This document shows, in pieces, positions 1 through 15,820 of a stretch of 24,000 nt of DNA. Made by a program: the position numbers and the translations under genes. How positions within the stretch are numbered: position 1 is the first letter of the stretch; every line of letters starts with the position of its first letter. The stretch covers positions 198,938-222,937 of the forward strand of contig CAWUJH010000002.1 of NCBI GenBank assembly GCA_963922875.1, read 5' to 3'. Origin of the DNA: an uncultured Ketobacter sp. (lineage in GTDB: Bacteria > Pseudomonadota > Gammaproteobacteria > Pseudomonadales > Ketobacteraceae). The notes under the pieces were generated by a model. That model searched no databases. It saw only the letters and a program-made list of their open reading frames with translations, and was not told the origin of the DNA.

Positions 1-68
1 TGAGCTACATCTCGTTCCGGTTTTAAATCGATTTCATCGACATCAATATTGGGTATCAATCTGGCCAT
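1..68 (-). CDS. 5' end of an unidentified sixth operon gene that runs off the left edge. Visible N-terminus: MARLIPNIDVDEIDLKPERDVA
   Basis: Minus-strand ATG at 66-68, 9 nt after the helicase stop (78-80), with a purine-rich AAGGA stretch upstream. The frame stays open to the window edge. Only 22 codons are visible. The MARxIP...PERxVA start resembles N-termini I associate with NERD or nuclease-helicase proteins. It does not look like a DUF1998 (DrmB) start, but that is recollection based on 22 aa only. Confidence 0.4.
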   Translation of the reverse strand, partial: MARLIPNIDVDEIDLKPERDVA

Positions 69-77
69 CTGAACCGC

Positions 78-3000
78 CTAATCCTTTATTTCTTCAGCAT
101 GGAGTGTGATTGAAGCCCAATCACCGTCCGGCAAATCGAATGAAACGTTGGCTTCCGGGTAACGTAGTTTCACACGAGTGGTTATGTTTCCGTTTTCATC
201 TTGTAATTCACTCCAACTCAATGTTCCCGCAAGTGTACCCTTGGGAAACTGTCCCTGTTGTACATCCGAAACGGACATCACCACGAACGTATTCTTTCCT
301 GGCTTTTGATCTTTCGACCTAGTTATGGTCAGCTGCTTGGATTGTCCATCGACTTCGATTTCGACGACCGTTTCAGATTCATATTTGCCTTTTGCGATAT
401 CGACCACTGAAACGAGTGATCCGGGAGCAGATGTCGGGGAATTTGTTCTTCTTCTAGCACTTCTTCCAGATCCTGCTGAATTTGCATCATTGTCGTTAGG
501 GATAACGACCCTGGGAGTCCAATTTGGACTATCCGCAAACTTCCTTGTATTCATGACGAGACGGACACCGGGTTCCACCTCCCGCATGGACATCGGCACG
601 GTGAAATCATCCCACGCTTGAACGCCGGGCGCCTTGATGAGGGCGACCATGGTGTCCTTATTGGGACCTTTCTTTTCATAACCCAGCAAGCGCCCACCTT
701 TTCTTACTTGTTCTGCCCACTCGTCTATTCGCGCTTTCAATTCCAGCTTTGCCAAGGCTTCGATATCCGAACGATCCGTGACGCTCCATGCTCGCTTGGT
801 CAGAATATCCATGGCCGTCTTGGCCTCTGGTTTGTCAACCTTATCCATCGACATGGCGCCAGTATTTGGATTGAACGGTTCGTTCTCCAAACGCATGAGG
901 CTCAACATCGTACCGGTGAGCCCACGGTCGATTGCTCGCGGCGAGAAGGGTGTAACCGATTGTGCTTCTACGTGTTTGTAGAAGGTTGCGTGGTAATGTT
1001 CGAAAGTTTCGTAATGCGATAGGTCTCGGGGACGAGCCCAAGTAAGCACCGTGCACACCAAACCAGGGAATTGTCGACCGACGCGGCTAGTGGCCTGGAT
1101 ATATTCGGCCGTACCTTTGGGTTGCCCATTGACGGCCATCAGCCCCAATCGATTCACGTCGACACCTACCGACAACATATTCGTAGCCAGCACCACATCA
1201 ATGGCTCGAATGTCGCCTTCTTGCCAGTCGGTCACGTATTTTCCTGTAGGAGCATCAAATCTCGCTTTGAAAGGCACTTCCAGCTGATCGAGATTCTTAG
1301 GGATATCACGATTGGAGATTCGTGAGGTCAACTCTTTGATATTCTGAACACTACGTTGAGCCAGCCCGGGGCGGTCGACCAAGCTCATCTGTACGCGGTA
1401 GGAACGTGTCTGCACGTCATCCTCCGCCAGTCGTTTCATTCCGCCCAGCTCTCGGAGTGAGTTGAAGTAACCCACCGTCGTCATGTAAGGATCGGCTGCC
1501 GGTCCGAAACGATCGAACAATCCCTGCGATGCTGTCAGGAATGCGGTATAGACCCGAATAAGCATGGCAGGGCGTGAACTACCCGGCGAACAGACACCAA
1601 GGTATCGTCGCCCAGGATGCTCTTGAATGGGACGTTGGACGGAGAAAAAGTTGTCCTCTACATCCAATCCGTGGGGTGGAAAGACGGAAACCTTGCGCAT
1701 GAAAACGCCATTGACCTGTTCCGCCGCTTTGCGCACTGTTGCAGTCGAGGCGATGATCTTTGGTTTGACCAGCTTGCCATCCAACTCCCAAGATGAAAGC
1801 TCGTCCACAGCCGTCTCATACAAACCAACCATGGTACCCAATGGCCCACTGATGAGATGGAATTCGTCCTGAATGATCAAATCGGGTGGGCGGATAGGCA
1901 TGATCTGCCGCACCTTGGTCGGAGCCAACCCTTTCAACGCACGATGGTTACCTTCGCACTCTGCACCGGGCCACAATAGACCGTGACGTGGACACTCCTT
2001 ATTAGCTCGACCAAATAGAGTTCTTACCTGGCCGCGCCAGGCCATCATGGCGAATTTGTCGACCGTCGCGATCATCATCGTTGGTGGGCGATGGTAGATT
2101 TCTTCGTCGACCACTTTCACCGGAATTCCGGGATGGGGCAAATTCGAGGTCTTGCCGCGCGAGAACTCGCAGTGGCTCTTCTTGTCACCACAGTAAATGA
2201 TGGTTTGACCTACCAGTTTGTTTACTTCGATATCTCGACCGGGCGCAACCTCACCTCCGCACCAAGGGCAACTGGTGAGTTGAGCAGGCGAAGTACTGCC
2301 GGCATCCCACTTGTCCGGGTCCCGGATATCTTGAATGGCCCGATGGCTATCGTCAGTCGTGCCTGGAGTAACCTTGTTACCCACCCACAGTCCAATAGTG
2401 AATGGCTCCTTGCCCAATGACTCGTCACCTTTGGCTAGCGCCTCCCGCCTTAAAACTTCCATTGCGCAAATCAGTGTCGTGGCACGCTGGAACTGCTGCA
2501 ACGTCAGCAACCTCAGCGTATAGCGCATGATCACGGACAGCCCGCGAGAGCTATCGTAGCCCCCCAAGTTTCCCTGCAACCTCCGTATGAACATGGTAAA
2601 TGCGGCAACGCCTAGATACGCTTCGGTCTTACCACCACCGGTGGGGAACCACAGCAAATCGGCATAGGCTTCTATGGGTTTGGTACGGTCCTTGTGATTC
2701 GGATCGGCCAACGAAGGGATCGACAACAGCATGAAAGCCAGCTGAAAAGGTCGCCAAGAACGATTCTTTCGTTCTTGAAAGTCCGACAACGTCTTGGATT
2801 GATTTCTGCGCTGAGAGAGTGCGTACAAGCTACGAATACGTTGATTCGCCATCGCCAGGTTCGCCGTACGGAAGGCTCTCAATGCGTTGTTATTTTCCGC
2901 GAGCACCTGAACGCCTTCCACCAAACGCTGGTGAATATCGGTACATTTATTCAGTGCCTCTTTGGCTTCCTGATCATGACCGGCGACATCCTTCCCGATA

Positions 3001-4637
3001 CGATCACGCTGCTCATTGATCCAAGCGTGATAATCGTCCGTTAATATCGACAAGGCTGAAACCAGTTCCCCTTTCGATAGATCCGCTAATACTTCCATGT
3101 CCAAGTAGCCTTTCTTGACCATTTCGCACATAGCCAAGCGATCAGGGCTATGGCTGTTGTTCTCCGGCCAATACTCGTTCCTGCTACCGGGAATATCGGT
3201 AATCGGCACCTCGTATTGCGGCATGATGGTAGTGCAAACCTCGGTCGCATACTCGACAGTTTCCGTATCGCTCACCGCGTGTACGGCTACACCATGGCCA
3301 ACCGCAAACTCCACCTTTTTACGGTAGACCATTTCCAGGGCTTTACGCTCGTGGTCATCGGAATCATCAAGTGCCAAAGGCCTGCGTCGGAAGATTGCCT
3401 TGTCTGTCGAGCCCTGGGCAGCTCGAATTCGAATCTCAGGCTGGAACAACCATGCAGTATCCTTGTTGGATTCCGGCTCTTCCTGGGCATTGACCAGGAA
3501 GAGTGTAATCAAGCGATCGCCATCGGCGTTTTTGGCCCGGACACTTCCTTGAATTCGGACTTCAGGATGCTCCTTGTCGGGAGCTTGGTGTGGTACGACC
3601 CCTTCCTTCATCGGCAGAGTAATGCGGCCACCACAGGAAATACGTTTCCAGACCTTGGGCTTCATCTCGGCTTCAACTGAGAACAGCTCATCACCCGCGG
3701 CGTTCTTCGTGCCCAGTGATACGCAGTTGACCCGTTCTAGCCCTTTCTTTTCTTGATAGGCTTCGACTTCCTGCTTGGTCATCTTGCGTTTTATGGGTTT
3801 GGAATGCTCGTGGTCATAGAGCCGCTCATAGCGACCCCATAGCGCTTCGACTTCAATAGCCTCGACGTCCCCGCTTACACAGAACGTGATGCCCATACTG
3901 GATGGAATCAAAGACTGATTACTGGCAGCATCGATCTCATCTGCACTATCAGACTCAGCCTCGACCTTGCCCGTAGTGGAGTTGAACTCTGCTCCCGGTT
4001 CATGACTCAAGCGATTTGGCACGTTCTTGTCATGAGTATCAATGGACTCATCTGGTTCTTCGCCTTCCTCATTGGCAAGAGGGCCTTCTAACCCTTCAAT
4101 CGAGCCGTCTTTCCTGCTGTCGCGGGGGGCCAACTTCCCAACCAAATAGCGGTCACGAACACTCATATCGACGATCTCTTCGTAAGGACCATTGGCTGGG
4201 CCTAGAAGATCGTCTACCACCGCAAGTTGCAACAGTTCTCTTATGTAAGCCTGATCATTGATCAATGGCACATCGGCAATGGTCTTGCCCGAAAGTTTCG
4301 GCAAGTTCTCAAGGAAGTCAGTCCACTGAATTCTGGATATCCGGCCACTTGGTGCAGACAGTGGTGTTTCAAATAGTGATGAAGGTGCGTCAAAGGAAAG
4401 GTATTTATCGAAATAGACGGTGGTGCTATCGAGAGATGAACGGATTCGATAGACTCGACCTACACCAATAGCTTCGGCAGAATCGTTTAGAGCCAAGATC
4501 CAATCATTTTCTCGAATGGCCTGATATTTCGTGACTTCACCAGCAAGCGAGAGGGAATAGTGCTCGAAAGGCAAGCCTAACGAAGTTTTTGAAGTAACTG
4601 CGACCCACGCATTGTTGGTCTCCATGCTATTGTTCAT
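78..4637 (-). CDS. Giant SF2 DExH-box helicase (1519 aa), DrmA-like (DISARM helicase family)
   Basis: Uninterrupted 1519-codon ORF. Helicase motif I PTGGGKT is at 2625-2645 and motif II DEFH at 1857-1868. Motif III-like IIASTAT is at aa 961-967. Motif V/VI LATNMLSVGVDV...QATSRVGR has its QATSRVGR part at 1074-1097. Its ATG overlaps the upstream MTase stop (ATGA at 4634-4637). The position after SNF2 and N6-MTase genes, the long non-helicase N-terminal region and the acidic loop fit DrmA. That family assignment is an inference without an HMM search. Confidence 0.8.
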   Translation of the reverse strand: MNNSMETNNAWVAVTSKTSLGLPFEHYSLSLAGEVTKYQAIRENDWILALNDSAEAIGVGRVYRIRSSLDSTTVYFDKYLSFDAPSSLFETPLSAPSGRISRIQWTDFLENLPKLSGKTIADVPLINDQAYIRELLQLAVVDDLLGPANGPYEEIVDMSVRDRYLVGKLAPRDSRKDGSIEGLEGPLANEEGEEPDESIDTHDKNVPNRLSHEPGAEFNSTTGKVEAESDSADEIDAASNQSLIPSSMGITFCVSGDVEAIEVEALWGRYERLYDHEHSKPIKRKMTKQEVEAYQEKKGLERVNCVSLGTKNAAGDELFSVEAEMKPKVWKRISCGGRITLPMKEGVVPHQAPDKEHPEVRIQGSVRAKNADGDRLITLFLVNAQEEPESNKDTAWLFQPEIRIRAAQGSTDKAIFRRRPLALDDSDDHERKALEMVYRKKVEFAVGHGVAVHAVSDTETVEYATEVCTTIMPQYEVPITDIPGSRNEYWPENNSHSPDRLAMCEMVKKGYLDMEVLADLSKGELVSALSILTDDYHAWINEQRDRIGKDVAGHDQEAKEALNKCTDIHQRLVEGVQVLAENNNALRAFRTANLAMANQRIRSLYALSQRRNQSKTLSDFQERKNRSWRPFQLAFMLLSIPSLADPNHKDRTKPIEAYADLLWFPTGGGKTEAYLGVAAFTMFIRRLQGNLGGYDSSRGLSVIMRYTLRLLTLQQFQRATTLICAMEVLRREALAKGDESLGKEPFTIGLWVGNKVTPGTTDDSHRAIQDIRDPDKWDAGSTSPAQLTSCPWCGGEVAPGRDIEVNKLVGQTIIYCGDKKSHCEFSRGKTSNLPHPGIPVKVVDEEIYHRPPTMMIATVDKFAMMAWRGQVRTLFGRANKECPRHGLLWPGAECEGNHRALKGLAPTKVRQIMPIRPPDLIIQDEFHLISGPLGTMVGLYETAVDELSSWELDGKLVKPKIIASTATVRKAAEQVNGVFMRKVSVFPPHGLDVEDNFFSVQRPIQEHPGRRYLGVCSPGSSRPAMLIRVYTAFLTASQGLFDRFGPAADPYMTTVGYFNSLRELGGMKRLAEDDVQTRSYRVQMSLVDRPGLAQRSVQNIKELTSRISNRDIPKNLDQLEVPFKARFDAPTGKYVTDWQEGDIRAIDVVLATNMLSVGVDVNRLGLMAVNGQPKGTAEYIQATSRVGRQFPGLVCTVLTWARPRDLSHYETFEHYHATFYKHVEAQSVTPFSPRAIDRGLTGTMLSLMRLENEPFNPNTGAMSMDKVDKPEAKTAMDILTKRAWSVTDRSDIEALAKLELKARIDEWAEQVRKGGRLLGYEKKGPNKDTMVALIKAPGVQAWDDFTVPMSMREVEPGVRLVMNTRKFADSPNWTPRVVIPNDNDANSAGSGRSARRRTNSPTSAPGSLVSVVDIAKGKYESETVVEIEVDGQSKQLTITRSKDQKPGKNTFVVMSVSDVQQGQFPKGTLAGTLSWSELQDENGNITTRVKLRYPEANVSFDLPDGDWASITLHAEEIKD

Positions 4638-7600
4638 TCTTCTTCCTGTCCGAAGATATCCATTTGCGGTGTTGGTTCAGTAACCTTATTCAACGCCATA
4701 TCTCTCGATTGTCGTTTGTGGTGCTGAGTGATTGCAGTTACGTTGCCCTTTTCAGATTTATTAGATATTTCTGCTTCATGTCGTTCTTTGTTGAGCATTG
4801 CCAAACGATGCAGCAATTCCATCCTGGCGCACTCACTTATTGTATAACGAGTATTTTGCCCCTCAGGAAGATATCCCACCTGATGAAATCCATGCTCAAG
4901 TCTTATATCCTGCCATTCATAAGCTCTTAAAAGTTCAGAATCTATCAGTTCACTTATGTTGCGAAGTTTTACTACCGTATCATCGTGACATTCCTGGCCA
5001 TGAAAAAAGTTATAAAACGTAGTCAATCCGACTTGGTTGGTTTCCATATATTTTTCGCGTAATGAATGGAATTCCCAAGCAGATCGTTCTACCGATGAAC
5101 TATATTTAGGGAAAGGGAATGTCTCGAATGTGTCGCTTAGGCTGTAGCGTAAATCATTTTTTAATTTTGATGAATATTGCCACGCATAAATGCAATGGAG
5201 ACTTGACTGTAAAACACCAAAACTCCAATAGTCATCAAGAACAAAAACGACAGTAGCATCCGAGAAAATAATGCCACTATCCACCATGCAAAAAGCCAAC
5301 GCCTTGCCATGCCTGCTCAACGCAATCACTTTATTTTTGGATGGCAATTCAATTCCTGGGTAGGTGCCAATAGCTTTGTATAGGTCTATTGTCGGCCTTT
5401 TATAAATCCACCATTTATTTCGTAATGCTGTAATTTTTTGAGTGTTTCTATACGGCTTAACCTGATCTAATATTTTTTGATAAGCACTTCCATACTTGGA
5501 TGCTTGATCAAGTGTCCAATCCCAGAAATTGATAACTCTTCTAGAAGGAGATTGCGTTGGGCTAGAGTTGAGATCCTTTCCGTTCAGAAACGGAAATATT
5601 ACATCCTTCGAATCTTGATAATTATCAATCTCGGACTCATCTACCAAGAAGCCGTCCCCTAATAAACACGAGCCGTTATATGCAATTCCTATATTACTTT
5701 TCAATCTCTTTGGAACCCATGACTCACCGGTTGTCAAAAAAGATGTTATTTGGTGTACATCTTTTTCAAAAATCTGCCTTGCACCACTCCATGCTCCTTT
5801 GAATAAATGAACTCTGCTAGTGACTACAGCTGCTTTTCCTGGCCAGCTTTCGTTGGGGTGACAGCTATATATTTCCCCTCCTGAAGACAAAATTCTTTCA
5901 AGTCCAACTCTTCGAGTATCTCCTTCAGATATCGTGTTTACTGACAAAAGACCTAAACAGGATTCATCACCAAGAACCGAAAAAGCGCGTAGGAAAAAGT
6001 AGGCAACGAAATCTGCTAGGCCTCGATCATTAGCCCCAACCTGAAGAACAAGGTACTCTCGATAATTTCCTCCAAAGCTTCCCGATATTTTTGATCCACC
6101 AACGAAAGGGGGATTTCCAACAACTGCATCAAATCCGTATTTTTTTCCTTCAAATACCTCTGGAAACTCCAAGCACCAATGGAATGGTTTTCGATTCTGC
6201 TTGCCCTTCGGCAAATCAGTATTCAAACCATCAGTAGCGAGAAGTCTTAAATACTTAACCGCATCTGAATCGCCCTCAAATACTCGGCCAGATTCGACCG
6301 ATAATATGGTGACGTCAGCCTTCTTCCCCCCAGCTTTAAGGGTCTCTCCAACCAAAGCATCTGCAACTAATTCCGGCAGCTCTAATTTCTCACGGGCTTT
6401 TTGATCCAAGTGAGCCATTATTTCGACATCATGAATATCCAAAATCGGCCGCTTTCGTAATTCCAGACGGAGTTCTATCGCCTCCTTGACTGACTCCTCA
6501 ATTTCTTGAGCAAAGAGCTTCTTCTCACTACCTTTGCCAACGTTCATATCCAGATAATACAGTTGTTCCAGATTGGTAATCCCGAGCAAGCTGTCACCAT
6601 GACGAAGGTTGTGATCCAGGAAGCCAAAGGGGCGGCCTTTAGCCAAGGTAATCAACCAGATCGAAAGCTTCGCCAATTCGACAGCGAGTGGATTGATGTC
6701 CACCCCATATAGGCAGCGCTCACTAATCAGGCGTCGCGCAGCTACCGAACGTTCTTCAGCATCGCCAGCCATTGGTTCTTGATTGGTAATGTTATCGACG
6801 ACGATTCCTTCGCCAGTGATGAACTTGCCTAGAGATTCGGCTTGAGACCAACTTTCTAACAATCTTTCCGATAACCAGCGGCAAACCTGAACCAAAAATG
6901 CACCCGAGCCCATGGCCAGATCGCAAATCTTGAGATCCAGCAGCTCTTCCGGAGTCTTCAGTTTCCAATCCTTGCGTTCCGCACCTTCGGCGGGACCCAC
7001 ATAGACGATCGGTTCCAGCGTCTCCTTGACGATGGATTCCGTCAGGGATTTAGGCGTGTAGTGGGTACCTGTTTCTCGACGATCGGAACCCGTTGCCACC
7101 ATGAAAGCACCCTTGGGGTATATCAGCGGGTAACCCCAGGGGTCGATTCGTAGAAAGTGATAGTAGGGAGCCAACCTATCGCGCAGGGCTTGGTCGCCCA
7201 AGCAAACGACCAACAGCTTTTCTTTGTTGGCATCGCTAACGACTTTATCGAGATCATTATTGATGCGAGAAGTGGAGCTGCCCGTTCGCTCTTCCAGAAG
7301 CGTTTTTACTGCCTTCTCACCACTCAGGCGCGCGTCTTCCAATTCACCCCAAGTCACCCAGGGTTTCTTTGATTTCTTGGTAGCTTCCAATTCCAGCGTG
7401 ACGTCCTTGGCACGAACTACGGTTCGCTCCAACAAACCTTCATAGACGTAGCCAATTTGCTCTACATCCAGTGCCCGATAGGACAGTGTCCTCCCCTGAA
7501 ATAGTTGAATAGCATCTAGCAGTAACAGAACTGTGCGGTTGTCGATTGGTAACGGTTGCGCGGGATCGTAACGCCAGTTCGAATCTTTTGTGCGCCCTTC

Positions 7601-8722
7601 AAGAAAGGGGAATCGATCGGGGTCGAACAGAGAGCCCCCCAGCGCTGGCATGCGCAGCGTTTCATGGTCCACGCCGCCATACACGGCGCGGAATATCGCG
7701 AGTAGGCGCGACCAAGCGTCACGGCGATGGGATAGGATTTCTTCCGAGTGCAAGCCTGCTTGCTCACGCAATTGCATTCGCAAGCTCGAAACGGCGTAGT
7801 AGGCTTCGTAGCGTTCATCACCCAATAGCAACAAACCGCGCTCTTCGGCACTCAACAAAAATACGAGACGCATCATCACCGTCAAACCGGCCTCGTAGAG
7901 TTCGGCGGATTCTACGTCTTTGAGTAACTCACGTTCACGATCCTGGTCTGCTTTGTCCAGAGCCTGAACCAGCACTTCGACTGCACGCCTGACTTGATCG
8001 CCAAGGGCATCGGTGACTTCATCCTGATGCTTGAGGGACTCATCCAGCAAGGCAGGTAATTGCTGGCTTGAATCCAGGAAAAAGCGGCGAATTCCCAATA
8101 GATTGATGAAGGCCTGTAACGTGACCGGTTCCTGCCCCCATAAGCGGGCATACCAACTGGCATAGGTAGTGACGCCGCCCTCGGGTGCATCGATCAGCAT
8201 CCAGCGTTCACCGTTGGTGAGCAGCCCCAGTCGCACCTTCGTGGCTCGACAGAGTTGGAGCATTCTCTCCACAGGGCTCGCAGCCCATCCATCTGACTTG
8301 TTAATAGTCTCGAGATCAATGCCAGCAGGCAACGTTTTAATCAGCAAGCTAGGCGGATGATCACTACCGGTGACTACGGCATAGTCCGGTTTGATCACGA
8401 CGCCATGCTCTGGGGCTTCGAATGAGACTCCATCAATGCTGTTCGCCGGTTTCAGTACATCCTCATCGTCGTCTTCATCCAGCTCCAGACCTTGCTTGAG
8501 AACCAAATCAATCCAGGCCGCATGTAGCTCTGAAAACGAAGGATCGGCATCGTCTTGGGCTTCCCGCCATTCTTCATAAGCCTGGCGTAATAGCTTTTTC
8601 TTGGCTGGATTCAGTTCGTCCAGACCTTGAGGAAAGTGCGACTCCAGAACGGTCTCGGCGAGAAAGGGACCTGAGATTTCCAGAAGTGATAGCCATTCAC
8701 CGTGAGTCTTCTTATCGTACAT
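4634..8722 (-). CDS. Large gamma-class N6-adenine DNA methyltransferase (1362 aa), Eco57I / type IIG-IIL / PglX / DrmMI-like
   Basis: 1362-codon ORF. It carries THYTPKSL (aa 553-560), the SAM-binding motif I ICDLAMGSGAFLV (aa 599-611) and the catalytic motif IV VVGNPPFVGG (NPPF at 6104-6115). GGAG lies 8 nt upstream of the ATG at 8722. The gene starts 5 nt after the SNF2 stop. A long C-terminal region after NPPF is consistent with a target-recognition domain. Confidence 0.85.
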   Translation of the reverse strand: MYDKKTHGEWLSLLEISGPFLAETVLESHFPQGLDELNPAKKKLLRQAYEEWREAQDDADPSFSELHAAWIDLVLKQGLELDEDDDEDVLKPANSIDGVSFEAPEHGVVIKPDYAVVTGSDHPPSLLIKTLPAGIDLETINKSDGWAASPVERMLQLCRATKVRLGLLTNGERWMLIDAPEGGVTTYASWYARLWGQEPVTLQAFINLLGIRRFFLDSSQQLPALLDESLKHQDEVTDALGDQVRRAVEVLVQALDKADQDRERELLKDVESAELYEAGLTVMMRLVFLLSAEERGLLLLGDERYEAYYAVSSLRMQLREQAGLHSEEILSHRRDAWSRLLAIFRAVYGGVDHETLRMPALGGSLFDPDRFPFLEGRTKDSNWRYDPAQPLPIDNRTVLLLLDAIQLFQGRTLSYRALDVEQIGYVYEGLLERTVVRAKDVTLELEATKKSKKPWVTWGELEDARLSGEKAVKTLLEERTGSSTSRINNDLDKVVSDANKEKLLVVCLGDQALRDRLAPYYHFLRIDPWGYPLIYPKGAFMVATGSDRRETGTHYTPKSLTESIVKETLEPIVYVGPAEGAERKDWKLKTPEELLDLKICDLAMGSGAFLVQVCRWLSERLLESWSQAESLGKFITGEGIVVDNITNQEPMAGDAEERSVAARRLISERCLYGVDINPLAVELAKLSIWLITLAKGRPFGFLDHNLRHGDSLLGITNLEQLYYLDMNVGKGSEKKLFAQEIEESVKEAIELRLELRKRPILDIHDVEIMAHLDQKAREKLELPELVADALVGETLKAGGKKADVTILSVESGRVFEGDSDAVKYLRLLATDGLNTDLPKGKQNRKPFHWCLEFPEVFEGKKYGFDAVVGNPPFVGGSKISGSFGGNYREYLVLQVGANDRGLADFVAYFFLRAFSVLGDESCLGLLSVNTISEGDTRRVGLERILSSGGEIYSCHPNESWPGKAAVVTSRVHLFKGAWSGARQIFEKDVHQITSFLTTGESWVPKRLKSNIGIAYNGSCLLGDGFLVDESEIDNYQDSKDVIFPFLNGKDLNSSPTQSPSRRVINFWDWTLDQASKYGSAYQKILDQVKPYRNTQKITALRNKWWIYKRPTIDLYKAIGTYPGIELPSKNKVIALSRHGKALAFCMVDSGIIFSDATVVFVLDDYWSFGVLQSSLHCIYAWQYSSKLKNDLRYSLSDTFETFPFPKYSSSVERSAWEFHSLREKYMETNQVGLTTFYNFFHGQECHDDTVVKLRNISELIDSELLRAYEWQDIRLEHGFHQVGYLPEGQNTRYTISECARMELLHRLAMLNKERHEAEISNKSEKGNVTAITQHHKRQSRDMALNKVTEPTPQMDIFGQEEE

Positions 8723-8727
8723 CGTGA

Positions 8728-11700
8728 TTACTCCGGCTGTGCGCTGAGTGATTGCGGAACGAGAATGATCGCAGCCACAGGAAAGGCGTGTTGGCTGGGG
8801 TCGCTGAATCGCATGGCGATGGCTTCGATTTCGCTTTCACGTTCTTTGGGAATGCGGGCCAACCGTGCTTCCAGCGCTTGGTTATCACGCTTGAGCTGCG
8901 TACGCTCTACCTCGTTGAGGTCTTCGAATACGAATCCCAGCTGCTCCGGCTGCCTCTCGAATTCCAACTCATGTCGAATGGTCTTTTCGAGTTCATTGAG
9001 GACATCATTGATGTCCTTTGATTCTTTCTCTTGTTGAATACGTAGAGTGTTCGCCAAGGTCTTCAAACGCTCGTTGGCCCGGCTGGACACAGCGGATTTG
9101 ATGGCTTCGAGATGCCGATCGAATCGTGTCGCAAGGGCGACCGTCGTGGGTTCATCGACATTACAAGGCGCGGATTCCTCTAACCACCGGCGCACTTCTC
9201 CTACACGTGTTTCACGTTTAAAGGAGGTGTCGCTGAGAAGGCCTCCTGACTCTATCAACTCTTCGTGAAGTCGATGATGTTTCCCACCGGTGATCACCAG
9301 CCGAGAAACGACCACCAAGGCTGGACCTTCCAATTGATCATCGGGCAGTGCTTTTACGCTGACCCGGTGTAATTTTTTGACATCTTCCTGAGCCCAAACC
9401 TCTGCCCGTAATAGTCGTAAGCACATCTGCACCAAACGATGATTCATGTGGACCAGCACGATTTCGTCTCTACCTTTGGCCACCTGGTGGTCAAAGGTGA
9501 TCGGTCTTATTTGGTGAGTATGTGGATGTTCCAGACCTTCGGCACATCGCGCCCATGAGCCTGTCAATGCGGGCATCTGATAAATAGTGACCGACGGCGT
9601 GTCGGGCAATTCGATCGGCTTCAGGGGAGGCTTTCCAGCAAGCAATAGAGCAGTATCGACAGCCGCTTTTATACGCTCTGGTGTAAGATGGAAGTCCTCT
9701 TGCGTTTCCAATAATCGACTGTGCAGCCTTTCGATCCTTTCCCTCAAACGGGCATCGGCACGCATGTACCGTTTGGCAGAAGCCATCTTTTGCTCTGCCA
9801 CGGCTGTTTCCAATTCGGTTCTGGTGCCTTCCAGCACCTGGGAGATTTGTGGCTCAATGAGCGCATTAACGCTCCCCAGGTCCTGGCGCATGGAATCGAT
9901 CTTGCGGAGCGCGCGCAATATGTCATCGGCATGGCCACCAATCGCGCCCTTGGACGTATCGGCATCGACCGGATGCCAAATGAAAACTTCTTTCTCGCGC
10001 TGGCCATGACGATCGATACGGCCATTGCGCTGTTCCATGACGTTGGGGTTATAGGGTATTTCAAGGTGGATGAGATAATTACAGTAGTTCTGTAAATCGA
10101 TACCCTCAGAAGCTGCGTCGGTGGCCAATAATATGCGGACATTGGATTGGGTTGGGTGCGCTTGGAAAGCGGCTTTTATGCGCTCTCGGTCCTGATGATC
10201 AATACCGCCATGTAAGATGGCCAAGCGCTCTCCACCATAATCGTGGGTAGCCAGGATTTTATGGAGCCAATCTAGGGTCGTTCTGTATTCAGTAAATAGA
10301 ATGACACGCTTGCCGTTCCAATCGCCATTTTCTTTGAGGTGTGACTCCAACCAATTCAGTATGGCCTTGGCCTTACTATCTACTTGGTTCATGGCACTTT
10401 GCGCCCAGTCACGCATGGGAACCAAGAGCGCGCGTTGTTCATCCGTCAAAGGCGGCACACGGCGACTTGCTTCTTCAACCGCTTCGGTTTGAGCCGATTC
10501 ATAACCGATGTCATCGCGATAATCTTCTTCCGTCTTGGCGATCAATTTCCGCAGAATCCGATCATCTATATCGCTCTTTTTCTTGCTATAGCCCTTGTGG
10601 ATATTTTCTACGTGTCTTTCAAGTGTCGACGCAAAGGCTGCCGGTGAGGAAAACAGACGCTTCTTGAGCAGATTATTGATGAATTTGGTACCAAACTGAG
10701 CTTGTCCATCTTCGGCAGATTCCAACCTGGATAGGGCATAAGCCTCAAGTTGTTTATGGATCTGTCGCTCTGCATCCGTATAGTCGATCTTCAGTGCTTG
10801 CAGGCTTCGCTTCGGATAAAGGGGATTGCCATCTTTGTCGACAAGATCACTCTTCAACCGCCTGATCATGACCTGAGCGAGCTGAGCCTCATCGGGAAGA
10901 ATGTTTCGGGCGAAGCGTTGGTCGTCCAGCAGTTCAAGTAAGGAAGTAAAAGATTCGGTATACCCATTGTGTGGCGTTGCCGTCAGGAAGAGGCGGTGCT
11001 GAAAATGCGGCGACAGTGTGCGAATCAGTTTCGTACGCTGGCTTTCGACGGCATAACTTCCAGACCCAGACGGCGCTATATTGTGTGCTTCATCCACCAC
11101 CAACACATCGAATTTTCTTGGGTAGGTGGGATAGACCGGCAATATGTCGCGCATGAGGCGCAGCCCTTCGCCACTCTTCATCCAATCCATAGAAGTAATC
11201 AATCGGGGAAACGATGTCCAAGGATTAACGTGAATTCCCCGTTCGCGGCGCAATTTCTTGACGTAGTCCGTATCGACAACCTTGAACTCAAGCCCGAATT
11301 TCTCGAGCATTTCGCCGCGCCACTTCTCTTGCAAGGACGCGGGGCAAACAACCAATACACTACGTGCTCTATGTCGCAGCAAGAGTTCTTGAATCACTAG
11401 ACCTGCTTCGATGGTTTTGCCAAGACCAACATCATCCGCAATAAGGAGATTGGCTCGTGCTAGATCAATAGCCCGCACCAGAGGATCAAGCTGAAAGTCT
11501 TCTATGCTAACACCGCTTCTGAAGGGAGCCTGTAGAAAGCCGCGGTCGGCATTGGTTGCGGCGCCCCACCGGACGGCATCAAGGAAAGCTTCGAGACGCT
11601 TCGATTCGTCGAACCCCGTTATTGAGGGAAGCCCTTTGTTTTCGATGACATGGGCACCAGGCTCGATTTCCCAAACCACTTCAAGCTCTTCGCCGAGTCC

Positions 11701-11877
11701 ATCTTCATCAATCGAAGACAACTTGACATAGTGTTGACCCGTCTTGCCGATATCTTCAACGTCGGAGCGCTGTATATCAGCGACAACCCACTGCCTACGA
11801 CGCACCTCAACCAATTGTCCTGGTTCAGGCGGTGTCGAGTATCTTCCACTTACTCTTTGCGTCGTATTGTCCGTCAC
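8728..11877 (-). CDS. SNF2-family helicase/ATPase (1049 aa), DrmD-like
   Basis: Motif I DDVGLGKT (GLGKT at 11413-11427), motif II VVDEAHNI, motif III LTATPHNG. Helicase-C motifs ATDAASEGIDLQ and QRNGRIDRHGQ are present. GTG start at 11877, 3 nt after the vsr stop, with GGGG 6-7 nt upstream. Confidence 0.9.
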   Translation of the reverse strand: MTDNTTQRVSGRYSTPPEPGQLVEVRRRQWVVADIQRSDVEDIGKTGQHYVKLSSIDEDGLGEELEVVWEIEPGAHVIENKGLPSITGFDESKRLEAFLDAVRWGAATNADRGFLQAPFRSGVSIEDFQLDPLVRAIDLARANLLIADDVGLGKTIEAGLVIQELLLRHRARSVLVVCPASLQEKWRGEMLEKFGLEFKVVDTDYVKKLRRERGIHVNPWTSFPRLITSMDWMKSGEGLRLMRDILPVYPTYPRKFDVLVVDEAHNIAPSGSGSYAVESQRTKLIRTLSPHFQHRLFLTATPHNGYTESFTSLLELLDDQRFARNILPDEAQLAQVMIRRLKSDLVDKDGNPLYPKRSLQALKIDYTDAERQIHKQLEAYALSRLESAEDGQAQFGTKFINNLLKKRLFSSPAAFASTLERHVENIHKGYSKKKSDIDDRILRKLIAKTEEDYRDDIGYESAQTEAVEEASRRVPPLTDEQRALLVPMRDWAQSAMNQVDSKAKAILNWLESHLKENGDWNGKRVILFTEYRTTLDWLHKILATHDYGGERLAILHGGIDHQDRERIKAAFQAHPTQSNVRILLATDAASEGIDLQNYCNYLIHLEIPYNPNVMEQRNGRIDRHGQREKEVFIWHPVDADTSKGAIGGHADDILRALRKIDSMRQDLGSVNALIEPQISQVLEGTRTELETAVAEQKMASAKRYMRADARLRERIERLHSRLLETQEDFHLTPERIKAAVDTALLLAGKPPLKPIELPDTPSVTIYQMPALTGSWARCAEGLEHPHTHQIRPITFDHQVAKGRDEIVLVHMNHRLVQMCLRLLRAEVWAQEDVKKLHRVSVKALPDDQLEGPALVVVSRLVITGGKHHRLHEELIESGGLLSDTSFKRETRVGEVRRWLEESAPCNVDEPTTVALATRFDRHLEAIKSAVSSRANERLKTLANTLRIQQEKESKDINDVLNELEKTIRHELEFERQPEQLGFVFEDLNEVERTQLKRDNQALEARLARIPKERESEIEAIAMRFSDPSQHAFPVAAIILVPQSLSAQPE

Positions 11878-11880
11878 TTT

Positions 11881-12342
11881 TCACCCCATATTTTTTGTTC
11901 TGTTGTAAACCGCCTCAATGATTCTTTTGACGGCTATCTCCGGGTCTTCGTGCTCCCAGATTCTAACGACATACCATCCGATATTAGTGAGGCTTTGATC
12001 CGTGTCTCTATCACGTTCACGATTGGTCTCGATTTTGTTTCGCCAAAATTCGGCGTTGGCTTTCGGCCAAGAACCATGTTCAAGACACCCATGCCAAAAG
12101 CATCCATCCACGAATACAGCGACCTTTGCACGAGCAAATACAATATCGGCTTTTCGCCTTGGCTTGCTGAGGACTGGGTAGTCGACCCTATACCGCAACC
12201 CTTGCGCAAATAAGCGCTTACGAATTCTGGTCTCTGCAGACGTGTCTCTCTGCCCGGTTGCAGCCATTCGCTTGCTTGCAGCAGCGGACGATGGAGCGGG
12301 TGAGGTTCTTTTACGAGGCACACCCATTCTCCCAGCTAACAA
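11881..12342 (-). CDS. vsr: Very-short-patch repair endonuclease (Vsr)
   Basis: Classic Vsr signatures: RSK-like ASKRMAATGQRDTSAETRIRKRL, VAVFVDGCFWHGC, FWRNKIETNRERDRD and VRIWEHE. The start is uncertain: TTG at 12342 (overlapping the dcm stop by 7 nt) or ATG at 12327. Confidence 0.9.
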   Translation of the reverse strand: MLAGRMGVPRKRTSPAPSSAAASKRMAATGQRDTSAETRIRKRLFAQGLRYRVDYPVLSKPRRKADIVFARAKVAVFVDGCFWHGCLEHGSWPKANAEFWRNKIETNRERDRDTDQSLTNIGWYVVRIWEHEDPEIAVKRIIEAVYNRTKNMG

Positions 12343-13376
12343 ATCAATTCGTATTCTTCCAGGTGAGCCTTGATACTTTTAGCGATGGCTTGGCCCAGAC
12401 CTACGGGAACTGCGTTGCCGATCATCCTTCCCAGGGTTCTAAACTCAACGGATGCTCCTCTCTCAATAAATTTATAATCTCGAGGAAACCCCTGAATCAC
12501 TGCCGCTTCGCGTAAAGAAATAGCACGGTCTTGTTCTGGATGTCCAAACCGCCCGTTTCCATAACCGTAGCATTGAGTGGTCATGGTCGGGGCTGGCTTA
12601 TCCCATTCCATTCGGCCATAGACACTGGGATATGTTTTACCTGAACCCTCTTTGTGGCAGTCAGCTACCAGTTTCTTAGGCCAGTCTCGCCACGTGCCAC
12701 CCGGTTTCGATGCTCGTATTCGTTTTAGATTAATTTCACTCAAAGTTGCAGAAACATGGAGCTTGTCTCGCTCGGAGCTCTCACCAGCTGCTATTGGTTT
12801 TAGTCGACCGATTACTTGTTTAACAGTCCTCGGCTTTTCATGCGTCTTTTCGATCATCTTGATAGGGCCGTACTGCGAAGCGAGTAAGACCAACCTTTTT
12901 CGAGTCTGAGGGACACCATAATGAGTGCTATCGACGACGCTATACCAAACGTGATAATCAAGCTTCTTGAGATCAGAAACAAAGTCATGAAAGACTTCAT
13001 GCTTTTGTACACTAGGTACGTTTTCCATCGTAATGACTTCTGGTCGAGTCCCTTCCGCCAATCTTGCAAATTCGTAAAGAAGCCCCCAACGTTCGTTTCG
13101 ATCTAATTCATATCTTTGTGAATAGGTAGAGAACGGCTGGCAGGGTGCGCAACCCGCCAGGACTCGTATTTCCGCCTCACCAAACAATGCCTCAATCTCC
13201 TCGGGCTCAAGTTCAGAAACATCCCGCTCCAAGAAAACGGAGTTATTATTCTTTTCATATGGATAGCGGCAGGCAGCATCCAAATCTATTCCTGCAACGA
13301 CGGGTAACCCTTCCTTTACAAAGCCATGAGTCAAGCCACCCGCACCACAAAATAAATCGACACATGAAACTGTCAT
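12336..13376 (-). CDS. dcm: DNA (cytosine-5) methyltransferase, Dcm-like (346 aa)
   Basis: C5-MTase motifs are present in canonical order. These are motif I DLFCGAGG, motif IV GCAPCQPFS (PCQ at 13137-13145), motif VI TMENVP, motif VIII QTRKRL and motif X GNAVP. The gene lies immediately upstream of, and overlapping, vsr, which is the classic dcm-vsr arrangement. Target specificity is not inferable by eye. Confidence 0.9.
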   Translation of the reverse strand: MTVSCVDLFCGAGGLTHGFVKEGLPVVAGIDLDAACRYPYEKNNNSVFLERDVSELEPEEIEALFGEAEIRVLAGCAPCQPFSTYSQRYELDRNERWGLLYEFARLAEGTRPEVITMENVPSVQKHEVFHDFVSDLKKLDYHVWYSVVDSTHYGVPQTRKRLVLLASQYGPIKMIEKTHEKPRTVKQVIGRLKPIAAGESSERDKLHVSATLSEINLKRIRASKPGGTWRDWPKKLVADCHKEGSGKTYPSVYGRMEWDKPAPTMTTQCYGYGNGRFGHPEQDRAISLREAAVIQGFPRDYKFIERGASVEFRTLGRMIGNAVPVGLGQAIAKSIKAHLEEYELIC

Positions 13377-13438
13377 GGATTAGTGCTCTCTATCTAAAAA
13401 CAAAGTTTGTGAAATATATGCCATTTGTTTTTTTACCA

Positions 13439-13651
13439 TCAGGTTTCGTTAGAATTTCGTGGTTCATCTTCACTAGGCTCGGCGGCTTGACCGGAGCGAA
13501 CCCACTCATCCACCTCGGATGCTTTAAACTTCCATAGACGTCCAACTCGATGCGCAGGCATACCTTTCTTGTTCCGCCATGTGTAGATCGTATCCTTGCT
13601 AACCCCGAGGTGTTCGCTGATTTCTTCTACAGAGAGCCATCTGTCAGTCAT
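13439..13651 (-). CDS. Excisionase-family (MerR-superfamily) helix-turn-helix DNA-binding protein, about 70 aa
   Basis: MTDRWLSVEEISEHLGVSKDTIYTWRNKKGMPAHRVGRLWKFKASEVDEWV matches the excisionase-family HTH pattern (LsveEaaexLgVS..TiY.w...g.p..rvGr.w.f...evdeW). ATG at 13651, with an alternative TTG at 13669. No good SD for either. It lies 62 nt upstream of dcm on the same strand. Confidence 0.75.
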   Translation of the reverse strand: MTDRWLSVEEISEHLGVSKDTIYTWRNKKGMPAHRVGRLWKFKASEVDEWVRSGQAAEPSEDEPRNSNET

Positions 13652-13708
13652 ATGGAGGTGCCCAAGCAAATTGTTTACGGATTTTTCCTAGTATGCTGAT
13701 ACTGGCAT

Positions 13709-13720
13709 AGGTTTAGTGGT
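13709..13720. repeat. Copy 1 of an exact 12-bp direct repeat, AGGTTTAGTGGT
   Basis: The identical 12-mer recurs at 13882-13893, within the same 346-bp non-coding stretch. Confidence 0.7.
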
Positions 13721-13738
13721 ATTAAAATAGAACAAGCA

Positions 13739-13997: not shown

Positions 13998-14867
13998 CTA
14001 CAGTTCTATGATTTTGATTTGTGCTGCTTGATTGGGTGGAACTGGAGTTGATTCTTTCTCAACAAAATCATTTGGATCGGTTCTTACGAAGCCGTCTTCC
14101 AAATTATTAAAGTCGAATAAGTTTCGGTCAGCTAATTGGGAAGGGGACACATTAGTCAAGGCCTTAAGCATGTTATACACCGCTTGAGGGTGTTCCTTCT
14201 CCATATTTGCAAGCATCGCTTTGGTAGCTTGTCGTTGGAGGTTTTCTTGGGAGCCGCAAAGGTTGCAAGGAATGATCGGGAATTCGCGAGCTGCAGCGTA
14301 GCGCTTGATGTCTTTCTCTCGACAGTAGGCTAATGGGCGAATCACAATGTTTCGCTTGTCATCGCTCAGTAGCTTTGGAGGCATCGCTTTTAAAGCTGCT
14401 CCGTGGATCATATTTAGAAACATGGTTTCCACTATATCATCCGCATGGTGACCAAGAGCCACTTTAGTAGCGCCAAGAGCATTGGCTGCATTGTAGAGAA
14501 TGCCTCGTCGCATTCTGGAACAGAGCCAGCAGGTTTTCTCTCCCTCAGGAATTTTTTCTTTTACGATGGAATAGGTGTCTTTCTCAATGACCTTATACTC
14601 GACCCCTAATTCTTCTAGGTATGTTGGGAGTACGTGTTCTGGGAAGCCTGGCTGTTTTTGATCCAAGTTGACCGCGATGATGCTGAATTCTATCGGCGCT
14701 ACCTTTTGCAGGTGCATCAAAGCGTCTAGCATTGTATAGGAATCGGCCCCTCCAGAAAGGCAGGCCATAATCTTGTCGCCATCCTGGATCATTGAGTAGT
14801 CTAAAACTGCTCGACCCACTTCGCGGTTGATCATTTTACGGAGTTTGTTGAAATTCTTGCTGCTCAT
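13998..14867 (-). CDS. ttcA: tRNA 2-thiocytidine(32) synthetase TtcA, full length (289 aa)
   Basis: PP-loop CLSGGADS, Cys pairs TCWLCS and PCNLCGSQ, and LGHHADD...ETMFLN. Start ATG at 14867. Confidence 0.9.
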
Positions 14868-15064
14868 TTGGTCTACGTCGTGAAAAAGGGTATATTCTGC
14901 CTGAAAATCAGCTGGTTTTCTTCAAAAGAAGGGTCTTCTTTTACAGAAATGGGCGATATTGTAAAGGTTAAGCGGGTATTAGCATAATAGAAAGGTGAGT
15001 AAATACAAAGGGTTAGAGTATTTGCTGGGACTAATTGGGTGCAGGTTATTCAATATAAGGCAAG

Positions 15065-15820
15065 GATTCCTACACGATGCTGGAAATATTGCGCAATCTG
15101 CAAAAAAGTGCCCCCATTGATTTCGAACTGGTGGCGGTGAATATGGATCAGAAGCAACCGGGATTTCCAGAACATGTGCTGCCGGAGTATCTGGATGGTT
15201 TAGGGATTGAGTATTATGTAGTGAATCGTGATACCTATAGTGTGGTCAAAGAAAAGATTCCCGAAGGGGCGACTACATGCGGGCTCTGTTCGCGCTTACG
15301 TCGTGGCACATTATATGGCTTCGCCGAAGATATTAACGCCACAAAAATTGCCCTTGGTCATCACCGGGATGATATGGTGGAAACCATGTTTCTGAATATG
15401 TTTTATGGTTCCAGACTCTCTGCAATGCCACCAAAACTGTTGTCTGATGATGGCCGTAATATTGTAATTAGACCACTTGCTTATTGCCGGGAAAAGGATA
15501 TCGAAGCCTTTGCGCAGCATAAGCAATTTCCTATTATTCCCTGTAATTTATGCGGTTCCCAGGAAAATTTGCAACGACAGAATATTAAGGTCATGTTACG
15601 CCAATGGGAGCGCGAACAGCCGGGTCGTATAGAGCATATTTTTAGTGCGATGCAAAACATAAAGCTTTCACAAATGGCCGATACGAGTTTATTTGATTTT
15701 GCTAATTTAACTCTGGATCGCAGCCAGCCTCGTCCTGAATATGAATTCTCCTCTGATAAGACCGTTGTGGGAAAGACCGCTATCAACGGGGCGAAAAAGC
15801 TTTCATTGATTAATTTGTAG
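15065..15820 (+). pseudogene. ttcA: 5'-truncated second ttcA copy lacking the PP-loop ATP-binding motif
   Basis: The ORF at 15077-15820 aligns with residues 47 onward of the full-length TtcA. My hand alignment gives about 70% aa identity over the first 180 positions. Homology continues upstream of the ATG only as far as (G)KDSYTM, compared with GADSYTM in the intact copy. An in-frame TAA lies at 15056-15058. The roughly 40 N-terminal codons, including SGG of the SGGxDS motif, are absent. Confidence 0.75.

Follow-up and report, generated by a model that had tools for sequence, protein, structure and literature searches.

Does this locus carry an ordinary DISARM system cut by the edge of the sequence, or an undescribed variant with a different effector set? 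The window, meaning the whole 24,000-nt stretch analysed, contains five complete minus-strand ORFs (the dcm, vsr, drmD and drmMI genes of Table 1, and drmA at 78–4637) and a sixth minus-strand ORF that begins with ATG 68 and continues past the window edge. The six ORFs and coordinates given in a preliminary description match the ORF listing, and the catalytic motifs it quoted are all found in the five complete proteins. As it had proposed, the core is that of class 1 DISARM, with all five class 1 genes identified by profile (NCBIfam, PADLOC and Pfam). DrmA, DrmB, DrmC and DrmD pass the NCBIfam curated cut-offs and DrmMI is assigned by PADLOC. The family definitions applied were Helicase_C (pfam00271) for DrmA, DUF1998/MZB (pfam09369) for DrmB, PLD (pfam13091) for DrmC and SNF2 (pfam00176) for DrmD.

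The possibility had been raised of a DISARM variant with other effectors in place of DrmB and DrmC, in keeping with the first 13.4 kb of the window, which show neither a DUF1998 nor a PLD gene and whose sixth gene encodes no DUF1998 protein. However, an identical 661-kb metagenomic scaffold (L001; window position x corresponds to L001 position 14638 − x) continues beyond the window, and a check of the sequence left of position 1 for DUF1998 and PLD ORFs found both, ~1.7 kb past that position. These are drmB and drmC, on the same contig after gaps of 9 and 4 nt. Their presence refutes the variant, which we now give almost no probability; the effector set is not a different one, and the preliminary alternative of a canonical system cut by the window edge was essentially correct. 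The locus is a complete class 1 DISARM, predicted to form a nine-gene operon (HTH, drmMII (dcm), vsr, drmD, drmMI, drmA, NERD-helicase, drmB, drmC), with its first two thirds in the window and its last genes just past the edge. Orthology to the Serratia system suggests that the operon would confer anti-phage and anti-plasmid activity and methylate host motifs.

Table 1 Features of the DISARM operon and the evidence for each
Feature	Window position	Strand	L001 position	Evidence
HTH_17/excisionase-type DNA-binding protein, MAD1-like, 70 aa	13439..13651	-		Pfam HTH_17 62 bits; PADLOC mad1 51 bits
C5 cytosine DNA methyltransferase (Dcm type), DrmMII equivalent	12336..13376	-		Pfam DNA_methylase 202 bits
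Vsr very-short-patch-repair endonuclease	11881..12342	-		Pfam Vsr 63.5 bits; TIGR00632 120 (cut-off 97.85)
DrmD, SNF2-family helicase	8728..11877	-		NCBIfam DISARM_DrmD equivalog NF038317 1382 (cut-off 610)
DrmMI, type IIG/MmeI-like N6-adenine methyltransferase with its own target recognition domain	4634..8722	-		PADLOC DrmMI 1802 bits, full length
Replaced target-recognition cassette in drmMI, residues ~877–1305	4809..6095	-		Comparison with M. harenosus
DrmA core, residues 1–1379, YprA-family SF2 helicase	501..4637	-		NCBIfam DISARM_DrmAS equivalog NF038325 1462 (cut-off 950)
S/N/D-rich low-complexity linker, DrmA residues 1380–1405	423..500	-		Alignment of DrmA C-termini
Tail domain of DrmA, residues 1406–1519, ~110 aa, all-beta	81..422	-		HMM matches
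NERD + SF1 (UvrD-like) nuclease-helicase, 562 aa (first 22 codons in window)	1..68	-	14570–16258 (whole gene)	
DrmB, MZB/DUF1998			16268–18118 (outside window)	NCBIfam DrmB_fam 762 (cut-off 240); Pfam MZB 45 bits
DrmC, PLD family (PLDc_2 57.8 bits)			18123–18884 (outside window)	NCBIfam DISARM_DrmC_I 236 (cut-off 133); PADLOC DrmC 324 bits

The preliminary description treated the six ORFs as one transcription unit. Three of its junctions, −4 (an ATGA overlap of drmMI and drmA), +5 and +9, are confirmed by unambiguous ATG starts, while −7 and +3 hold only for the longest ORFs, which begin at TTG 12342 (vsr) and GTG 11877 (drmD). The contig's gene caller places these starts at GTG 12321 and GTG 11805, giving gaps of 14 and 75 nt. 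For vsr, GTG 12321 is more likely because of its better SD spacing. For drmD, the long 1049-aa form from GTG 11877 is supported, since the NCBIfam DrmD model and the PADLOC models begin at its residues 17 and 9–11, respectively, and an SD-like GGGGTGA precedes the codon. From dcm to drmC every junction is then ≤14 nt, or 75 nt at drmD with the gene caller's GTG 11805. Because the gaps are small with either choice and all genes share one strand, a single operon is likely, with co-transcription predicted. A promoter scan of the locus gave fewer promoter-like sites than shuffled sequence, and a terminator scan gave no strong internal terminator.

DrmD also matches PADLOC DrmD (1480 bits) and Pfam SNF2-rel_dom and Helicase_C, and carries GLGKT at residue 151 and DEAH at 262. 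NCBIfam has no equivalog for DrmMI, whose membership is drawn from PADLOC, Pfam (Eco57I, MmeI_Mtase and MmeI_TRD), the NPPF motif at residue 870 and its position between drmD and drmA. Its target-recognition cassette has no nucleotide similarity to M. harenosus and a protein identity of 22–50%, in an island that is otherwise 94–96% identical; the GC content of the cassette is 0.37–0.42, against ~0.5–0.57 across drmMI residues 1–700. In related loci, the space between drmMI and drmA is a hypervariable slot with many unrelated defence genes.

The head of the operon had been read as a non-canonical end led by Dcm and Vsr. It is instead typical of the clade: among the 33 related species loci where this region is visible, 31 have Dcm and/or Vsr immediately before drmD. 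In 15 loci, this one included, dcm and drmD flank the gene for a Vsr homologue of at least 50% identity. Vsr has FVDGCFWHG at residue 77, and Dcm carries FCGAG at residue 9, PCQ at 78, ENV at 118, QTRKR at 157 and GNAVP at 320 (TIGR00675 137, cut-off 100.65). The HTH gene, absent from the preliminary description, lies 62 nt upstream of dcm and is kept there in six other loci (L002, L003, L020, L023, L037 and L049; 67–78% identity), making it a candidate controller at the operon head. Its product exceeds the NCBIfam cut-off for the "excise" domain (61.9, cut-off 28.8). As a MADS MAD1 protein it is rejected (NCBIfam MAD1 75.6 bits, cut-off 80), PADLOC profiles detect no other mad genes among the operon proteins, and it is merely a related small HTH protein outside MADS.

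Could HTH, Dcm and Vsr be a separate solitary methyltransferase and repair module, an orphan or a type II R-M remnant that adjoins DISARM by chance? Dcm scores as high with the generic PADLOC MTase_II model (303 bits) as with DrmMII (295 bits), and 29 related loci encode a predicted type II restriction enzyme (HATPase_c_3; PADLOC REase_II 380 bits) between drmMI and drmA that could be its partner, though not at this locus. Yet the module precedes drmD directly in 31 of 33 informative loci from many genera, with a same-strand gap of 3 to 75 nt here. DrmMII is, moreover, an already described extra cytosine methylase of class 1 DISARM, tested in Serratia sp. SCBI, where its methylation modulates DISARM activity and drmMII adds to protection (bioRxiv 10.1101/2021.12.28.474362). 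A chance neighbour is therefore distinctly improbable.

The 1519-aa helicase falls within the DrmA family (PADLOC DrmA 1643 bits, in addition to the NCBIfam match). Its core comprises an N-terminal domain, a trigger-loop region, a Zn motif and RecA1/RecA2, with PTGGGKT at residue 665, CPWC at 790 and DEFH at 924. Against Serratia DrmA (PDB 7S9V chain A; 2002 bits) it aligns over residues 2–279 and 325–1379. The extra N-terminal domain and Cys/His insert claimed for it both match Serratia DrmA residue by residue; class 1 DrmA has been described as having an EVE-like domain, a trigger loop and RecA1 Zn-binding motifs (bioRxiv 10.1101/2025.09.15.676423). The claimed C-terminal extension stands. 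DrmB matches 7S9V_B at 1094 bits and is parted from drmA by one inserted gene. This insertion and the C-terminal extension of DrmA are the two genuinely unusual features of the locus.

The gene after drmA, correctly described as not DUF1998, encodes a NERD + SF1 nuclease-helicase (Pfam NERD 43.7 bits, UvrD-helicase and UvrD_C_2) and is wedged between drmA and drmB, with drmC following. It belongs to the NERD + SF1 helicase family (PADLOC RTasNERD-Hel/C3a187), with a full-length RTasNERD-Hel match of 216 bits (residues 1–554). Across 12 homologues (50–70% identity), D61, E75-V-K77, GSGKT 246–250, D348-E349, R405 and R544 are invariant, and the PD-(D/E)xK triad and SF1 catalytic residues are all intact. 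PADLOC Nhi gives only E 8.4e-8 and 29 bits, with residues 338–419 as the best stretch. The protein is thus outside the Nhi family, and is predicted to act like an Nhi-type nuclease-helicase.

The 140-aa extension of DrmA consists of a linker, missing from short-form DrmA in the alignment of C-termini, and the tail domain. The tail matched no Pfam family and no PDB fold (best E 0.07, TM 0.34), and we found no description of an upstream tail domain in the literature. Its AF2 model has seven strands and a pLDDT of 83.8, and pN (0.27–0.40) is well below pS (0.71–0.86), which marks the tail as a genuine protein domain.

The tail tracks the helicase across hosts. A first HMM, built from seven DrmA tails only, matched the C terminus of long-form DrmC in L072, L085 and L087, as well as a DruE-like helicase (L088) and an unknown 303-aa protein (L089); in all five cases the gene immediately downstream encodes a NERD-helicase. 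A search of 1.84 billion proteins supplied two further tail-bearing proteins, chosen blind, one a DUF1998 protein and the other NOV_C/TmtA-like; each is followed 9–10 nt later by a NERD-helicase of 51–54% identity. With the final HMM and 95 loci, 18 of the 19 loci that have the NERD-helicase carry the tail at the C terminus of the ORF immediately before it, and none of the 76 helicase-less loci has a tail. This is a tally of phylogenetically non-independent loci (L085 and L092–L095 are one lineage, L001 and L002 another) that also contributed members to the HMM. Tail hosts are DrmA, DrmC, a DruE-like helicase, a DUF1998 protein, a TmtA-like protein and an unknown protein.

We consider it rather probable that this is a class 1 DISARM system with an added NERD-helicase effector, the tail serving as a docking or control domain that ties the helicase to DrmA. 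By orthology with the tested system of Serratia sp. SCBI, DrmMI (m6A, at a non-palindromic site) and DrmMII (m5C) would mark host DNA, and Vsr most likely repairs T:G mismatches from deaminated DrmMII-made m5C as a self-protection accessory. The trigger loop of DrmA would autoinhibit the DrmA–DrmB helicase complex, which would load on invader DNA having a 5′ single-stranded end, while methylated cognate sites would turn the system off. The tail may then act as an adaptor between a plug-in NERD-helicase and its partner protein, which at this locus is DrmA. According to published work, DISARM can do without DrmC, which fails to co-purify with DrmAB, and which protein serves as the DISARM nuclease is left open (PMC9142583); if our reading is true, DISARM gains a dedicated DNA-degrading effector beside this dispensable PLD protein.

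Alternatively, tail and NERD-helicase could form a self-contained, Nhi-like cassette of two parts, defensive or selfish, that merely inserted in DISARM and works independently of DrmAB. The tail would then be the cassette's own regulator, such as an inhibitor or antitoxin-like partner, once encoded by a small gene of its own and later joined in frame to the preceding ORF at its 3′ end. The helicase family does occur beyond DISARM: in L089 it lies in a mobile or defence island, in L091 it follows a TmtA-like fragment, and in L083 its surroundings are repair-like. It is independent of DISARM, because L083 has it without a tail, adjoining AddAB-like and ExoI genes. Within DISARM its insertion point varies, after drmA or after drmC, a pattern also compatible with a self-contained cassette that inserts where genes end; on a short contig with no identified DISARM locus (L090) it follows a DUF1998 protein. 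The low-complexity linker between the canonical DrmA end and the tail is as expected from read-through of a former intergenic spacer, and tail-only proteins of 100–185 aa occur among the representatives, many of which may be fragments. Other defence genes embedded in DISARM operons are known, such as ShdA (PMC10270631), and the drmMI–drmA slot is itself hypervariable in its defence genes. Against this, 16 of the 19 sampled helicase loci are in DISARM or beside DruE-like or DUF1998 proteins of the YprA helicase group, which suggests that the helicase prefers one class of partner; in-frame fusions that recur with different hosts are easier to explain if tethering is selected, and the Nhi match is weak and partial. 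An autonomous cassette is possible, and we rate it as unlikely.

The closest known system to this DISARM locus with its putative tethered effector is that of Serratia sp. SCBI (drmMII-drmD-drmMI-drmA-drmB-drmC; PDB 7S9V/7S9W; Aparicio-Maldonado et al. 2021 bioRxiv; Bravo et al. 2022). All six of its genes are present here, DrmA and DrmB being close orthologues (2002 and 1094 bits) with the same N-terminal domain, trigger-loop region and CPWC Zn motif, and by analogy both are dual m6A and m5C systems. Unlike Serratia, the operon here has a vsr gene between drmMII and drmD, an HTH gene upstream, a different DrmMI recognition domain, a ~45-aa insert at DrmA residues 280–324, the DrmA linker and tail, and the NERD-SF1 helicase gene between drmA and drmB.

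ARMADA type II, a related system, encodes an SNF2 protein (ArmA), a PglX-like methyltransferase (ArmB), a YprA helicase (ArmC) and ArmD, a RelE-like RNase (nuclease-like domain) joined to a UvrD-family helicase and paired with the YprA helicase (bioRxiv 10.1101/2025.09.15.676423). This pairing counts in favour of the NERD-helicase as an added DISARM effector. The two systems share YprA-family and SNF2 helicases, a large N6-methyltransferase and, likening ArmD by its description, an SF1/UvrD-type helicase with an N-terminal nuclease-type domain. Here, however, that domain is NERD (PD-(D/E)xK) rather than RelE-like, DrmA and DrmB divide the YprA helicase between them, DrmC is kept, and the SF1 helicase appears linked via a tail domain on the upstream protein.

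Nhi, RTasNERD-Hel and C3a187 likewise combine an N-terminal PD-(D/E)xK-type nuclease and an SF1 helicase in one polypeptide, and such nuclease-helicases show enrichment in defence islands. The Nhi model matches our protein in the helicase part only, and RTasNERD-Hel is associated with UG34 reverse transcriptases (PMC9226505), whereas no reverse transcriptase lies nearby here; the present family is instead defined by its upstream tail domain. Finally, ShdA/RmuC homologues embedded in Pseudomonas DISARM operons (PMC10270631) also place a foreign nuclease-type defence gene inside DISARM, but they belong to another protein family and occupy another insertion slot, while here DrmA itself is modified by a fused domain.

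Scaffold L001, a 661-kb metagenomic scaffold that encodes the 1519-aa protein and is identical to the window across their overlap, continues past window position 1. Beyond the edge, on the same contig, drmA is followed by a NERD and UvrD-like (SF1) helicase gene (hereafter NERD-helicase), then by drmB, an MZB/DUF1998 protein, and drmC, a PLDc_2 protein (table). The preliminary description held that drmB and drmC directly downstream of the large helicase would mark an ordinary class 1 DISARM; both genes are present, one gene further on. The 1519-aa protein belongs to the DrmA family, as proposed, scoring 1462 bits against the NCBIfam equivalog (cut-off 950), and the equivalogs for DrmD (1382 bits, cut-off 610), DrmB (762 bits, cut-off 240) and DrmC class I (236 bits, cut-off 133) are matched as well, with DrmMI scoring 1802 bits in PADLOC. 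DrmA and DrmB also score 2002 and 1094 bits, respectively, against their Serratia sp. SCBI counterparts in the cryo-EM structure of DrmAB (7S9V). The locus is thus, with near certainty, a canonical class 1 DISARM truncated by the edge of the window, and most of what had been described as its non-canonical ends proves canonical. This is a routine call, one that PADLOC, DefenseFinder or NCBI PGAP would make from the whole contig.

The N-terminal domain and Cys/His insert of the helicase, previously regarded as extra, are canonical because the alignment with Serratia DrmA runs through that domain and through the CPWC...C Zn motif. Published accounts describe these features as an EVE-like domain, a trigger loop and motifs that bind Zn (bioRxiv 10.1101/2025.09.15.676423), the trigger loop also in PMC9142583. 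Relative to Serratia DrmA, an insert lies between aligned blocks just past the trigger-loop/N-terminal region. Two PADLOC labels are mismatched at this locus: the SNF2 protein DrmD has PDLC02572, labeled DrmA, as its top match (1639 bits, full length), and PDLC02626, labeled DrmD, matches the DrmMI C terminus.

The five complete minus-strand ORFs described from the sequence are present to the nucleotide, every quoted catalytic motif was located, and the sixth ORF exits the left edge. The ATGA overlap of drmMI and drmA, the 5-nt drmD/drmMI spacing and the 9-nt spacing after drmA rest on unambiguous ATG starts, whereas the -7 and +3 junctions hold only if the longest ORFs are taken; the gene caller of the contig places the vsr and drmD starts further in. 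For drmD, the longer form is the better choice since family profiles begin within its first 9-17 residues. Gaps from dcm to drmA are small whichever start sites are chosen. A small HTH gene upstream of dcm had been overlooked. The MADS system, prompted by the MAD1-like HTH, was rejected, as the score falls below cut-off and no further mad genes were found among the operon proteins.

The Dcm/Vsr lead had also been counted as non-canonical. Class 1 DISARM systems bearing an additional cytosine methylase, DrmMII, are known; the Serratia system is one of them and uses both marks, m6A at ACACAG and m5C at MTCGAK (bioRxiv 10.1101/2021.12.28.474362). Among 80 related loci compared, one per species, 33 show sequence upstream of drmD, and in 31 of these Dcm and/or Vsr lie there, making this lead typical of the clade. 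Vsr occurs in 15 loci, L001 included, and the same small HTH in six others. Because Dcm-type enzymes commonly travel with Vsr, this association is biologically unremarkable, and no mention of it was found in the DISARM literature examined.

Coordinates of the features discussed (L001 position = 14638 - window position)
Feature	Window position (strand)	Scaffold position	Size or placement
HTH gene	13439-13651 (-)		70 aa; 62 nt upstream of dcm
vsr start, contig's gene caller	GTG 12321 (-)
drmD	8728-11877 (-)		preferred start GTG 11877
drmD start, contig's gene caller	GTG 11805 (-)
drmMI	4634-8722 (-)
DrmMI target-recognition part	4809-6095 (-)	L001 8543-9829	residues ~877-1305
DrmA insert	3666-3800 (-)		residues 280-324; ~45 aa
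NERD-helicase (sixth ORF)	start ATG 68 (-)		562 aa; 9-nt gap after drmA
drmB			616 aa; 9-nt gap after NERD-helicase
drmC			253 aa; 4-nt gap after drmB
DEDDh exonuclease (RNase_T/KapD-like)		L001 18982-19479	165 aa; follows drmC, beyond the window
Ankyrin-repeat protein		L001 19886-20488	200 aa; follows drmC, beyond the window
Alignment to M. harenosus	1-13732	L001 906-19665	includes 5 kb past the left edge
PP-loop (ATP_bind_3) ATPase	13998-14867 (-)		divergent pair
PP-loop (ATP_bind_3) ATPase	15077-15820 (+)		divergent pair
AAA_22 ORF	18143-20620 (-)		825 aa
NERD-helicase homologue		L083 10001-11689	61% identity

The source of the operon resembles Microbulbifer. The closest genome is that of Microbulbifer harenosus (DrmA 97% identical), and a near-identity search of E. 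coli genomes with the operon returned no match. The M. harenosus alignment reaches from the HTH as far as the DEDDh exonuclease and leaves the flanks out, and at ~0.49-0.54 the operon is richer in GC than the right flank (0.42-0.48), a combination suggestive of an island gained by horizontal transfer. A tRNA scan of the window found none, hence no obvious integration site, and the ORFs scanned yielded no integrase. Two divergent PP-loop ATPase genes lie beside the island's right border. Further right, an 825-aa ORF whose sole family match is an N-terminal AAA_22 lies among ordinary chromosomal genes (LysR, malate synthase G). On the other side, the DEDDh exonuclease also lies 3′ of drmC in M. 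harenosus, ~760 nt further off, and in no other related locus. The exonuclease and ankyrin genes were rejected as parts of the system, since no loci other than the two from Microbulbifer have them, and the spacing differs between these two.

Within the island, the target-recognition part of DrmMI is swapped relative to M. harenosus: nucleotide similarity is nil across this stretch, compared with 94-96% identity over the rest of the 18-kb island, protein identity drops to 22-50% and GC falls to 0.37-0.42. The m6A motifs of the two strains probably differ. The adjacent drmMI-drmA slot is hypervariable (1.3-7 kb) in most relatives (L003-L086) and empty in L001, where the genes overlap by 4 nt. 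Its occupants are a HATPase_c_3 predicted type II restriction enzyme (29 loci), DUF7380+DUF4209/PADLOC PDC-S39 (9 loci), a HATPase_c_3 and Methyltransf_35 pair (7 loci), a KAP NTPase, an AspBHI-like Mrr or a 556-637-aa protein of unknown kind (6 loci each), GmrSD_N with HEPN (3 loci) and YhcG (2 loci).

The value of the locus lies in the module inserted between drmA and drmB, a catalytically intact nuclease-helicase accompanied by a dedicated domain on DrmA. In homologues of 50-70% identity, the D61...E75-V-K77 nuclease triad, Walker A (GSGKT), Walker B (DE) and the SF1 arginines of the NERD-helicase are invariant, and we predict that both activities are functional. Among profiles, PADLOC RTasNERD-Hel fits it best (216 bits, full length), the Nhi profile matches weakly (29 bits), NCBIfam holds no family for it, and a sequence search of solved structures gave no match. 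Nearly all relatives space drmA and drmB by ~20-55 nt; a ~2.1-kb gap containing the NERD-helicase occurs only in L001, L002, L003 and L075, together with L082, L084 and L086, which were located through the helicase search. In exactly these loci DrmA measures 1449-1519 aa, compared with ~1325-1335 aa elsewhere, the additions being a linker rich in S, N and D and, at the C terminus, a conserved domain of ~110 aa, the tail. The tail has no Pfam family, is under purifying selection (pN 0.27-0.40 against saturated pS) and is confidently predicted to fold as a seven-strand beta domain (pLDDT 83.8), for which the PDB offers no acceptable match (best E 0.07, TM 0.34).

The tail is also found on other host proteins. 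Where the helicase lies after drmC (L072, L085, L087 and L092-L095), a short DrmA is paired with a long DrmC (379-387 aa against ~253 aa), and an HMM trained solely on seven DrmA tails picks up the DrmC extensions (E 7e-6 to 7e-4). In two loci outside DISARM, the same HMM matches the C terminus of the protein whose gene immediately precedes that of the helicase: a DruE-like YprA helicase (L088, 5e-13) and a 303-aa protein of unknown kind (L089, 2e-17). As a forward test, two tail-bearing proteins (DUF1998 and NOV_C/TmtA-like) were drawn from an exhaustive search covering 1.84 billion representatives; in each case a NERD-helicase of 51-54% identity begins 9-10 nt further on. Across 95 loci, the tail stands at the very end of the upstream ORF in 18 of the 19 with the helicase and in none of the 76 lacking it. 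The sole tail-less helicase, in L083, sits between ada/ogt genes and an AddAB-like pair with ExoI and may represent a housekeeping or repair-associated form of the family. The tail occurs in at least six host contexts, with fewer independent events than loci counted because several loci are closely related. DrmC-type tails dominated the profile used in the exhaustive search; its 28 clusters include some spurious multi-repeat proteins and lack the DrmA-type hosts, so that they do not measure family size. A word-indexed protein search with the tail alignment, too insensitive for a ~110-aa domain, gave only three short matches. The PADLOC DrmC model PDLC02602 (381 positions) contains the tail in its last ~100 positions, so unrelated tail-bearing proteins match "DrmC". 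The NERD-SF1 helicase with its traveling tail is a real add-on, of which no prior description was found in the literature searched.

The DISARM nuclease question is open: DrmC, which is dispensable, fails to co-purify with DrmAB, and a "mix-and-match" use of nucleases has been put forward (PMC9142583). Orthology marks the present system as a dual-methylase class 1 DISARM in which DrmAB senses invader DNA. In our model, the tail would tether or control the NERD-helicase and so equip DrmAB with a nuclease-helicase effector. Chief among the rivals is an autonomous tail and helicase cassette that inserts at gene ends and acts alone, a reading favored by the non-DISARM contexts of the helicase and by the linker ahead of the tail; the repeated in-frame fusion and the bias toward YprA/DUF1998 partners favor tethering. 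We consider the overall explanation, DISARM identity and tethering together, moderately probable, and place tethering itself just short of an even chance. More tentatively, the tail could be an undescribed portable docking domain that plugs the NERD-SF1 helicase into DrmA, DrmC, DruE-like and other DUF1998/YprA helicases and TmtA; in the present DISARM variant it would bring the long-sought DNA-degrading effector straight to the DrmAB sensor. The same domain and helicase pair attaches to several other defense helicases, and a docking role would make it a general "plug-in effector" mechanism for modular defense evolution and a simple experimental handle on the DISARM effector. It would also be a natural, genetically tractable answer to how invader DNA is destroyed despite a dispensable DrmC; an island of 94-96% identity is present in a cultured strain, Microbulbifer harenosus CGMCC 1.13584. 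Consistent with tethering, other defense genes are known to be embedded in DISARM operons (PMC10270631), and in ARMADA II a YprA helicase works with ArmD, which combines a nuclease-like domain with a UvrD helicase (bioRxiv 10.1101/2025.09.15.676423).
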